Below are positions 5,157 to 5,595 of a stretch of DNA of 10,740 nt, piece by piece. A program made the position numbers and the translations under genes. The stretch is from IMG/VR virus record IMGVR_UViG_2513237361_000016. One strand, 5' to 3'. Position 1 is the stretch's first letter. Each line of letters begins with the position of its first letter. Under the pieces are notes generated by a model that made no database searches, was not told the DNA's origin, and saw only the letters and a program-made list of their open reading frames with translations. Source of the DNA: a virus. Lineage: Duplodnaviria; Heunggongvirae; Uroviricota; Caudoviricetes.

Positions 5157-5432
5157 ATGAAAGTCCAGATTTTAAACAATAACTGTGAAGTCGTTTGGTC
5201 ATACGACATAGCCGCCCCTGTAGATCAGAGCGGCGATAGCTGGACCAATGGGAAACATCAGATTATGGCTGGAGTTGTGTTCTCTTTACGCCGTGCTTTG
5301 GAACAGGCTGAAGTATTTCCATCAGACCCTGAATGGAAATGGCCTTTTTCTATTTGTCCAAATTCGGAGAGCACATTTCAGAAAATTGGTCAGAAAGTCG
5401 CACTCGAAGAGCATCAGCCAACTGTTTCCTGA
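5157..5432 (+). CDS. Hypothetical small protein (91 aa) downstream of the repressor
   Basis: ATG at 5157 is preceded by AGGTG with an 8-nt spacer. Same strand as cI, beyond the predicted terminator. Its 3' end overlaps the convergent ORF 5350-5595 by 83 nt. No family recognised. Confidence 0.35.
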   Translation: MKVQILNNNCEVVWSYDIAAPVDQSGDSWTNGKHQIMAGVVFSLRRALEQAEVFPSDPEWKWPFSICPNSESTFQKIGQKVALEEHQPTVS

Positions 5433-5595
5433 TTTTTTCAGGTAACTCGTCGGCATCGCAGAAACAACAACGCTCGATCATGTTGAAAGCCGATTCGTAG
5501 AACTGTTTCTGCTGAGTGTCGCTGAGACAGGAAAAGAGCGACGTTACGATGATTTTATTAATTGCATTATCAAGTTCTTTTTCATCAAAAGTCAT
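5350..5595 (-). CDS. Hypothetical small protein (81 aa)
   Basis: ATG at 5595-5593 is preceded by AAGGAAAA. Overlaps the 3' end of the upstream fimbrial-like ORF by 11 nt. No family recognised. Confidence 0.35.

Follow-up and report, generated by a model that had tools for sequence, protein, structure and literature searches.

Immediately downstream of the repressor gene in a tailed-phage record (IMG/VR virus IMGVR_UViG_2513237361_000016, Caudoviricetes), two small open reading frames (ORFs) on opposite strands converge and overlap at their 3' ends. The stretch of DNA analysed here, referred to as the window, comprises 10,740 nucleotides (nt) and represents the immunity and early region of an enterobacterial prophage resembling SfV, e14 and CPS-53, with cro on the minus strand (4026-4226) and, on the plus strand (4324-4950), a cI-type repressor gene whose product carries the Pfam domains HTH_3 and Peptidase_S24 and is named "LexA family protein" by the Prokaryotic Genome Annotation Pipeline (PGAP). 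The first of the two ORFs, hereafter the plus gene, corresponds to orf33 of Shigella phage SfV and to family PHROG 3195; it occupies 5157-5432 on the plus strand and encodes 91 amino acids (aa; MKVQIL...). Its open frame spans 5115-5432, the ATG at 5157 being the conserved start, and a Shine-Dalgarno (SD) sequence AGGTG (5146-5150) lies 6 nt ahead of it, the equivalent of which is GAGGA in clades B and D of its relatives. The second ORF, the minus gene (PHROG 3311), runs on the opposite strand at 5350-5595 from an ATG at 5595, encodes 81 aa (MTFDEK...) and is preceded at a distance of 7 nt by the SD sequence AAGGA (5607-5603).

The two coding regions share 83 nt at 5350-5432. The sequence-only reading from which this analysis started had described the same two ORFs with a plausible SD each and this overlap, and its coordinates were confirmed. 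First codon positions of the two frames face each other, plus second positions face minus third positions and plus third positions face minus second positions, a relation that is constant in every lineage and because of which the silent site of one frame is the second position of the other. Since the window contains 76 ORFs of at least 40 aa, frames of such size are not beyond chance alone, and both genes were established through comparative evidence, namely purifying selection on each of them and retention of the pair in seven lineages.

Purifying selection and conservation of both genes

The window was compared by the Nei-Gojobori method with three Klebsiella and Salmonella variants (clade B). 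Outside the overlap, the plus gene (5157-5348) showed proportions of synonymous differences (pS) of 0.83-0.88 and of nonsynonymous differences (pN) of 0.18-0.20, and the minus gene (5434-5595) showed pS of 0.78-0.83 and pN of 0.18-0.20, corresponding to pN/pS of about 0.2 for each frame, whereas wrong-strand control frames over both non-overlapping stretches gave nonsynonymous to synonymous ratios (omega) of 4-5. From this contrast it follows that both ORFs are protein-coding and under purifying selection. The earlier reading had proposed exactly this comparison of synonymous and nonsynonymous variation in order to decide between one spurious ORF and a real antisense-overlapping pair; its first option is refuted and its second stands, the pair being retained between E. 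coli and Yersinia and also further afield.

Near-identical copies hold little information; 180 loci, from IMG/VR and elsewhere, yielded 56 distinct sequences, and the plus ORF is intact in all 56 and the minus ORF in all but two, which carry frameshifts. The first IMG/VR scans returned such copies only, and a scan of the genome_contigs collection with either protein alignment gave no relatives; the divergent lineages were reached through protein searches and exact look-ups. Every divergent locus fetched contains both ORFs in a convergent and overlapping arrangement: a Klebsiella/Salmonella group (L006, L171-182) with a plus protein of 122 aa, a minus protein of 76 aa and an overlap of 161 nt, Klebsiella michiganensis (L189; 162 and 76 aa, 281 nt), Yersinia (L183-185; 122 and 80 aa, 173 nt), a second Salmonella lineage (L186; 122 and 75 aa, 158 nt) and the distant lineages L190 (192 and 80 aa, 137 nt), L191 (126 and 76 aa, 173 nt) and L192 (108 and 82 aa, 140 nt). 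Across seven lineages the overlap is thereby conserved at 83-281 nt and in one frame relation, and it is longer in the relatives (137-281 nt) because the stop of the plus frame sits further downstream. Plus start and minus start are separated by exactly 439 nt in the window, and the first four divergent lineages have the same spacing. Plus homologues, found down to about 35% identity, lie directly 3' of a repressor gene in every locus fetched, and minus homologues occur in Klebsiella, Salmonella, Yersinia and more distant loci. Homologues of each ORF at 26-60% identity show conservative substitutions, and the start contexts (SD and ATG) of both genes are retained in divergent relatives in which the neighbouring bases differ.

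Variants with a single intact partner were also observed. The Salmonella loci L187 and L188 carry an early nonsense codon in the plus gene next to an intact minus gene, and the IMG/VR loci L085 and L087 carry a frameshift at about codon 12-16 of the minus gene next to an intact plus gene; such cases may reflect genuine losses or errors in the sequences.

Slack tails and an apparently doubly constrained core in the overlap

For the overlap and its flanks, the mean pairwise difference among four deep lineages was determined by site class, given here in the order +1/-1, +2/-3 and +3/-2 (codon positions in the plus and minus frames). Values of 0.29, 0.16 and 0.50 at 5157-5348 show the pattern of plus coding, and values of 0.26, 0.51 and 0.13 at 5526-5595 that of minus coding. 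At 5433-5525, where the plus frame is still open in the 122-aa forms, the values are 0.19, 0.55 and 0.17, which is the pattern of minus-only coding, and the long plus tails are therefore unconstrained. The stops of the plus frame vary accordingly between lineages, giving proteins of 91, 93, 108, 122, 126 and 162 aa, and over the whole overlap the plus-frame omega is 1.0-1.3. When the minus protein was held fixed and its synonymous codons were resampled, a plus frame at least as open as the observed one arose with P of 0.27-0.88 in seven of eight loci and with P=0.013 in the eighth (L191). Site-class analysis and synonymous resampling together rule out that the long plus tails of clades B-D are selected. 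A permutation of codon order in the plus tails gave P of 0.001-0.09, values of limited weight because such a permutation does not preserve the protein and the lineages lack independence.

Within the overlap proper the picture is divided. The stretch 5349-5374 is free in both frames (0.54, 0.50 and 0.65). The adjoining segment 5375-5412, about 38 nt in which plus codons ~73-85 lie opposite minus codons ~62-74, is low in all three classes (0.26, 0.28 and 0.19), and this conservation at every codon-position class fits true dual coding. Silent sites show the same in either direction: minus third positions are invariant in 6 of 12 codons of the segment versus 10 of 61 in the remaining minus gene (Fisher p=0.019), and plus third positions in 9 of 13 versus 15 of 64 in the plus core (Fisher p=0.0024). 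Over seven lineages, third-position identity is 0.60 in minus codons 62-74 versus 0.36 elsewhere (random-subset P 2e-4; best-window permutation, which corrects for the choice of window, P=0.005) and 0.66 in plus codons 73-85 versus 0.41 elsewhere (P 3e-4, corrected 0.013). Suppression of silent change in both frames thus appears in this segment, a small one chosen post hoc, and not in the other ~45 nt of the overlap.

On the plus strand the segment encodes F-Q-K-x-G-x-x-[VI]-A-L-E, and the motif F-x-K/R-x-G-x-x-I/V-A-L-E is kept in homologues of about 40% identity. Read from the opposite strand, it specifies the closing part of the minus protein's third helix, and the rare arginine codon CGA is retained at minus codons 64 and 66, which face the L-E codons of the plus frame. 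It appears that ~13 codons are truly dual-coding, specifying the last conserved helix of each protein, and that the remaining overlap is tolerated read-on.

Terminator, promoter and structured leader upstream of the plus gene

The earlier reading had likened the position of the plus gene, downstream of cI on the same strand, to the slot in which lambda carries rexAB. The likeness does not extend to the signals in between, as a terminator-like element (4973-5003) and a predicted operator-bearing promoter (5004-5032) divide cI from the plus gene. The former is an intrinsic terminator-like hairpin on the plus strand directly after cI, CACCGAAC and GTTTGGTG separated by 8 nt and followed by a T run, which was read by eye; a consensus scan of the window did not list it, and SfV has a terminator annotated at the equivalent place. 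The latter is a sigma-70-like promoter on the same strand found by a promoter scan (TTGCCA-17-TAGATT), within which lies a putative copy of the cI operator, ACTAAGTTAAGTTAG, at 5015-5029. Without mismatch, the 15-mer ACTAAGN5TTAG occurs in the window only at this site and at 4238-4252 and 4287-4301 between cro and cI; if one mismatch is allowed there are five matches versus 0.51 expected, a number that none of 200 shuffles reached. One such single-mismatch copy lies at 4979-4993, inside the cI terminator. The three exact copies are probably operators of this immunity type. SfV, which has a different repressor, carries its own motif TGTACCN7TACA both in the annotated operator region and in the equivalent promoter.

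Between promoter and plus gene lies a structured RNA leader of 72 nt (5043-5114, plus strand), which occurs in phages and prophages of E. coli, Shigella, Salmonella, Klebsiella and Yersinia. Across the loci it follows six or more unrelated promoter/operator sequences, beginning 10-15 nt beyond the -10 element of each. In the RNAalifold prediction it folds into three helices; 7 of the 15 pairs show compensatory changes, and the closing stem occurs as AACGAA/UUCGUU, AGCGAA/UUCGCG and GUCAUC/GAUGAC. A covariance model built from it (R1) recognises the element with 93-97 bits in the window as well as in SfV, the Salmonella phage ST64B, a Yersinia prophage and a phage of Klebsiella. The leader has no Rfam match, and Rfam scans of the window found nothing. 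It is a candidate for a new cis-acting leader, which might act in antitermination, processing or transcript stability. In the Yersinia locus L183 the covariance model places the structured leader on the far side of the cassette, at 3352-3423, so that the cassette can sit on either side of the element.

Because the terminator, the operator-bearing promoter and the structured leader precede it, the plus gene is probably the first gene of a repressor-controlled early-left transcript. Most likely, to judge from these predicted signals, this holds in both the window and SfV, with the plus gene not being co-expressed with cI.

The leader of the minus gene and a second cassette in tandem

An alignment of seven lineages shows that the minus gene, too, has a conserved 5' leader of about 70 nt (5596-5666, minus strand), beyond which the conservation upstream of its ATG stops. 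The leader contains a 5' hairpin (GCCUG at 5663-5659 with CAGGC at 5644-5640), to which a pairing of ACCAC with GUGGU within 5632-5651 is an alternative, and a second hairpin in which UCCUUUUA (5630-5623) pairs with UAAAAGGA (5610-5603) and which is predicted to bury the SD of the minus gene. This anti-SD:SD hairpin is present in the predicted minimum free energy (MFE) fold of all five lineages folded, and its arms differ between lineages, being UCCUUUUA/UAAAAGGA, UCCUUC/GAAGGA, UCUUGG/CCAAGA, UCCUUCU/AGAAGGA and UUACCUCA/UGAGGUAA. RNAalifold on a MAFFT alignment recovered an invariant CCAC/GUGG stem only; the SD hairpin was missed because MAFFT misaligned the 3' arms, for which reason single-sequence folds were used instead. 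As the leader is 98% identical among prophages with other repressors, it is not immunity-specific. In SfV a rho-independent terminator of orf33 is annotated at the equivalent of window positions 5583-5615. The hairpins near this place (e.g. 5632-5651) all belong to the minus leader and no plus-strand T run follows them, and the annotation is probably a misread minus-leader structure.

In E. coli CX07 (L005 2001-2500) a second cassette stands in tandem, bounded by the same two ends: the plus gene is represented there by its first 15 codons, and the minus leader closes the opposite side. Between them lie unrelated convergent small ORFs of 68 aa (plus) and 63 aa (minus) that overlap by 39 nt, the same minus leader (L005 2395-2480) standing ahead of the unrelated small gene. 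Upstream of this second cassette, at ~1791-1994, lies a frameshifted small cysteine-rich ORF with two CxxC motifs that looks zinc-finger-like by eye. The arrangement in CX07 suggests that the flanks serve as a reusable frame for convergent small-gene pairs.

The encoded proteins

The plus protein consists of a conserved core (aa 1-64), a variable linker (65-72), a conserved C-terminal helix (~73-85) and an unconstrained tail (86-91). Its AlphaFold2 (AF2) model, of low confidence (predicted local distance difference test, pLDDT, of 64), shows a beta-hairpin and two helices, one of them at 71-85. For the minus protein AF2 predicts a three-helix bundle (helices 5-22, 26-46 and 53-75; best model with pLDDT 83, the other four poor); this protein has a conserved RCC[YF]CDAD motif, and its tail after about aa 74 is unconstrained. 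Both proteins are acidic, hydrophilic and devoid of a membrane segment, with an isoelectric point (pI) of 4.5-5.0 in the conserved parts and a maximal 19-residue Kyte-Doolittle mean of at most 0.94; for the minus protein the pI is 4.6 and there is no hydrophobic segment.

Neither protein had been recognisable to the sequence-only reading, which had asked for profile and structure searches, and these leave that judgement in place. The plus protein matches the PHROG 3195 profile with E=8e-70 over positions 1-98 of 98 and the minus protein the PHROG 3311 profile with E=1e-55 over positions 1-81 of 81, both being families of unknown function. Scans of both proteins and their distant homologues against Pfam, NCBIfam and PADLOC yielded nothing above noise, PDB sequence profiles and fold searches with both proteins gave no match, and literature searches for SfV orf33, the protein accessions and the PHROG identifiers found nothing relevant. 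Some distant plus homologues have an additional N-terminal domain of ~85 aa, which is likewise unrecognised. Size, charge and location of the two proteins fit small protein-binding modulators, be it in exclusion, anti-defence or regulation.

A two-gene cassette with a probable short dual-coding core

Moderate confidence is placed in the reading that the locus is a two-gene cassette of SfV/e14/ST64B-like prophages with a convergent layout, a mostly slack overlap, a dual-coding core and a plus gene that belongs to early-left transcription. As the sequence of the minus protein makes few stops on the opposite strand, the plus gene reads on for a variable distance, ending at 91 to 162 aa. The plus gene would be silent in the lysogen and turned on at induction or infection, and the minus gene would probably be transcribed independently and translated only under some condition, given that its leader is predicted to hide the ribosome-binding site (RBS). 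A scan of the window found no terminator-like site between the two genes, and each transcript must therefore run into the other gene; with 83 nt of coding sequence in common, the two mRNAs, if both are produced, cannot avoid overlapping. Firing of the early promoter would then be expected to lead to polymerase collision and to an mRNA duplex of at least 83 nt and in this way to shut down the minus gene, and the two products would be expressed in mutually exclusive states. Mutual antisense regulation of the pair, which had been raised as a potential of the arrangement by the earlier reading, is plausible.

Several points weigh against this reading. The core segment was delimited post hoc, covers 12-13 codons and was evaluated on lineages that are not independent, and its corrected P values (0.005 and 0.013) are modest. 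The expression states of both genes are predictions from sequence, and the promoter scan gave no convincing sigma-70 promoter for the minus gene. In Yersinia the early-left transcript may not begin with the plus gene, in which case the regulatory logic could differ between lineages. Finally, the variants with a single intact partner suggest that neither gene needs the other for carriage by the prophage.

Some of these points are shared by the less likely alternative that both genes are real and their overlap is incidental, the two being cargo packed tail to tail, with the plus gene reading on and the dual constraint being either noise or the work of the minus gene alone. It would account for an overlap that is for the most part unconstrained in at least one frame, for a plus-frame omega of 1.0-1.3 with widely varying stops, for an openness of the plus frame that is expected from the minus protein sequence and for natural variants without one partner. 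What it accounts for less well is that the two genes have stayed together, convergent and adjoining, across seven lineages with protein identities as low as 26-45%, at every locus examined and despite mosaic surroundings, that silent sites of the minus frame are conserved specifically where they face plus codons 73-85, that the motif in these plus codons is kept at ~40% identity, and that without intergenic space or terminator convergent transcription must collide.

A bolder proposal makes the 3' overlap itself the regulatory device of a two-protein switch, in which the early promoter would make the plus protein and at the same time silence the lysogen-state minus protein through collision and duplex formation, translation of the latter being gated separately by its structured leader and the shared 38 nt locking the genes together. 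This is considered unlikely. If it were true, the second CX07 pair within the same flanks would turn the arrangement into a general cassette design for accessory genes specific to one state, such as those of exclusion, anti-defence or toxin-antitoxin (TA) type.

A TA-like or exclusion role of the cassette is possible; the solubility and acidity of both proteins and the natural single-partner variants count against it. The specific form of a TA or abortive-infection module, with the minus protein as a gated effector and the plus transcript and/or plus protein as its antidote acting via the antisense overlap and possibly via protein binding, is regarded as distinctly unlikely. Convergent genes that overlap at their 3' ends without a terminator, a structured leader that is predicted to hide the minus SD in every lineage folded, a position in the immunity region, a frequent site of exclusion and defence genes, and the unrelated convergent pair between the same flanks in CX07 would all suit such a module. 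However, neither protein is hydrophobic or membrane-directed or has a match in PADLOC, Pfam or NCBIfam, the "antitoxin" is not simply an RNA because both partners are under selection at the protein level, and the persistence of L187 and L188, in which the plus gene is broken and the minus gene intact, argues against a toxin that is lethal when not neutralised.

That the silent-site conservation at 5375-5412 marks a nucleic-acid element, either a site bound by a protein or a common signal at which transcripts end or are processed, is improbable. Both mRNAs have to terminate or undergo processing somewhere close by, and clades B and D have an inverted repeat GCTCT-CGA-AGAGC within the segment, but folding of either strand in four lineages revealed no stable or shared RNA structure (z-scores of -1.1 to +1.6) and no terminator-like site was found, and the conserved bases encode an amphipathic plus motif that extends across distant homologues and forms a helix in the AF2 model. 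The last alternative, one gene with a chance open frame antisense to it, can practically be dismissed, since each ORF has an uncovered region of 160-190 nt with purifying selection in its own frame against an omega of 4-5 on the opposite strand, and each has homologues with conservative substitutions at 26-60% identity and a conserved start context.

Distribution and surrounding genes

The DNA of the cassette is common in E. coli: the stretch 5100-5620 was found, over at least 80% of its length, in 425 of 5,426 complete genomes (~8%), and SfV carries it at 99% identity. Annotation of the pair is one-sided, as SfV lists only orf33 and vB_EcoM-720R4 lists only the minus ORF. Public annotations never list both genes because gene callers reject large antiparallel overlaps, with the consequence that in each annotated genome examined one conserved prophage protein is left out.

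Elsewhere in the window, xis and int occupy 8416-9794, and the replication genes lie to the left. Two genes for K88-type fimbrial subunits (5700-7394, minus strand; Pfam Fimbrial_K88, E=1e-64 and 1e-48) take the place that yfdP and yfdQ have in related prophages. The first of them is truncated at its 3' end, and its ORF (5585-6418) extends through the leader of the minus gene; the junction of fimbrial gene and minus leader was contiguous in no complete E. coli genome of the collection. Three more orphan genes stand beside xis and int, at 7619-8413 (plus strand), 9786-10403 (minus strand) and 10414-10740 (minus strand). They comprise a probable membrane protein of 264 aa (PHROG 12528), a protein of 205 aa with an N-terminal hydrophobic segment (PHROG 30059) and an ORF of 108 aa that runs past the end of the window, and none of them has a PADLOC or Pfam match.

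Comparison with known systems

Like rexA and rexB of lambda, the plus gene is an accessory gene of the immunity region located immediately 3' of the repressor gene on the same strand. The two differ in that rexAB is co-transcribed with cI from PRM/PRE, whereas here a predicted terminator and a separate, repressible promoter with a putative operator intervene, and in that the cassette proteins, which are small, acidic and soluble, have no sequence or fold similarity to the Rex proteins; no homology to RexA or RexB was detected in Pfam, NCBIfam or PADLOC. The order of operator-bearing promoter, about 10 nt of spacing, structured RNA of ~70 nt and first ORF is closer to the beginning of the lambdoid PL operon, with nutL and N in lambda and putL in HK022. 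The putL element is approximately 70 nt long and situated just downstream of PL (PMC9378689), and by that description 5043-5114, a structured RNA of such length just 3' of an early promoter, has a put-like placement. It is not the HK022 put RNA itself, as model R1 detected neither putL nor putR, with no hit in HK022 22-33 kb at E values up to 10, and the leader and putL have only the short strings ACGAAC and CAGGATGA in common. In contrast to lambda and HK022, there is a single copy of the leader in the window and the plus protein has no relation to N or Nun, so that the resemblance to putL would be a functional analogy at most.

With type I TA loci whose convergent units overlap at their 3' ends, e.g. 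txpA/RatA, bsrG/SR4 and fst/RNAII, the cassette shares converging units, 3' ends that would be complementary if both mRNAs are made, and the sequestration of one partner's RBS by its leader, which here is a prediction from the MFE folds of five out of five lineages. It departs from them in that both partners encode conserved proteins under purifying selection, leaving no non-coding antisense RNA as antitoxin, and in that neither is a small hydrophobic peptide (Kyte-Doolittle maximum of at most 0.94, pI 4.5-5.0). The minus gene also recalls sieB of lambda and P22, a gene directed against early-left transcription near the immunity region with expression signals of its own. SieB is a membrane protein of ~190 aa that is not known to have a coding overlap with a partner, and there is no homology between it and the minus gene. 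Finally, the pair resembles other antiparallel overlapping genes in showing purifying selection in both frames and what appears to be a local suppression of silent variation in the shared segment, and differs from them in that double constraint is confined to a very short stretch (~13 codons), the remaining overlap being slack.

Taken together, this is an overlooked, ordinary-looking pair that belongs with antiparallel overlapping genes and with the antisense arrangements of lambdoid immunity regions and calls for no new category. It is a clean natural test of dual coding in a long antiparallel overlap, in which ~13 codons out of 27-90 appear to carry the constraint, and it sits at the control point between lysis and lysogeny, with a conserved structured leader on either side and no Rfam match to either leader in the scans. 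These features make the cassette a tractable system in which to study the control of convergent transcription and the function of two orphan phage protein families.

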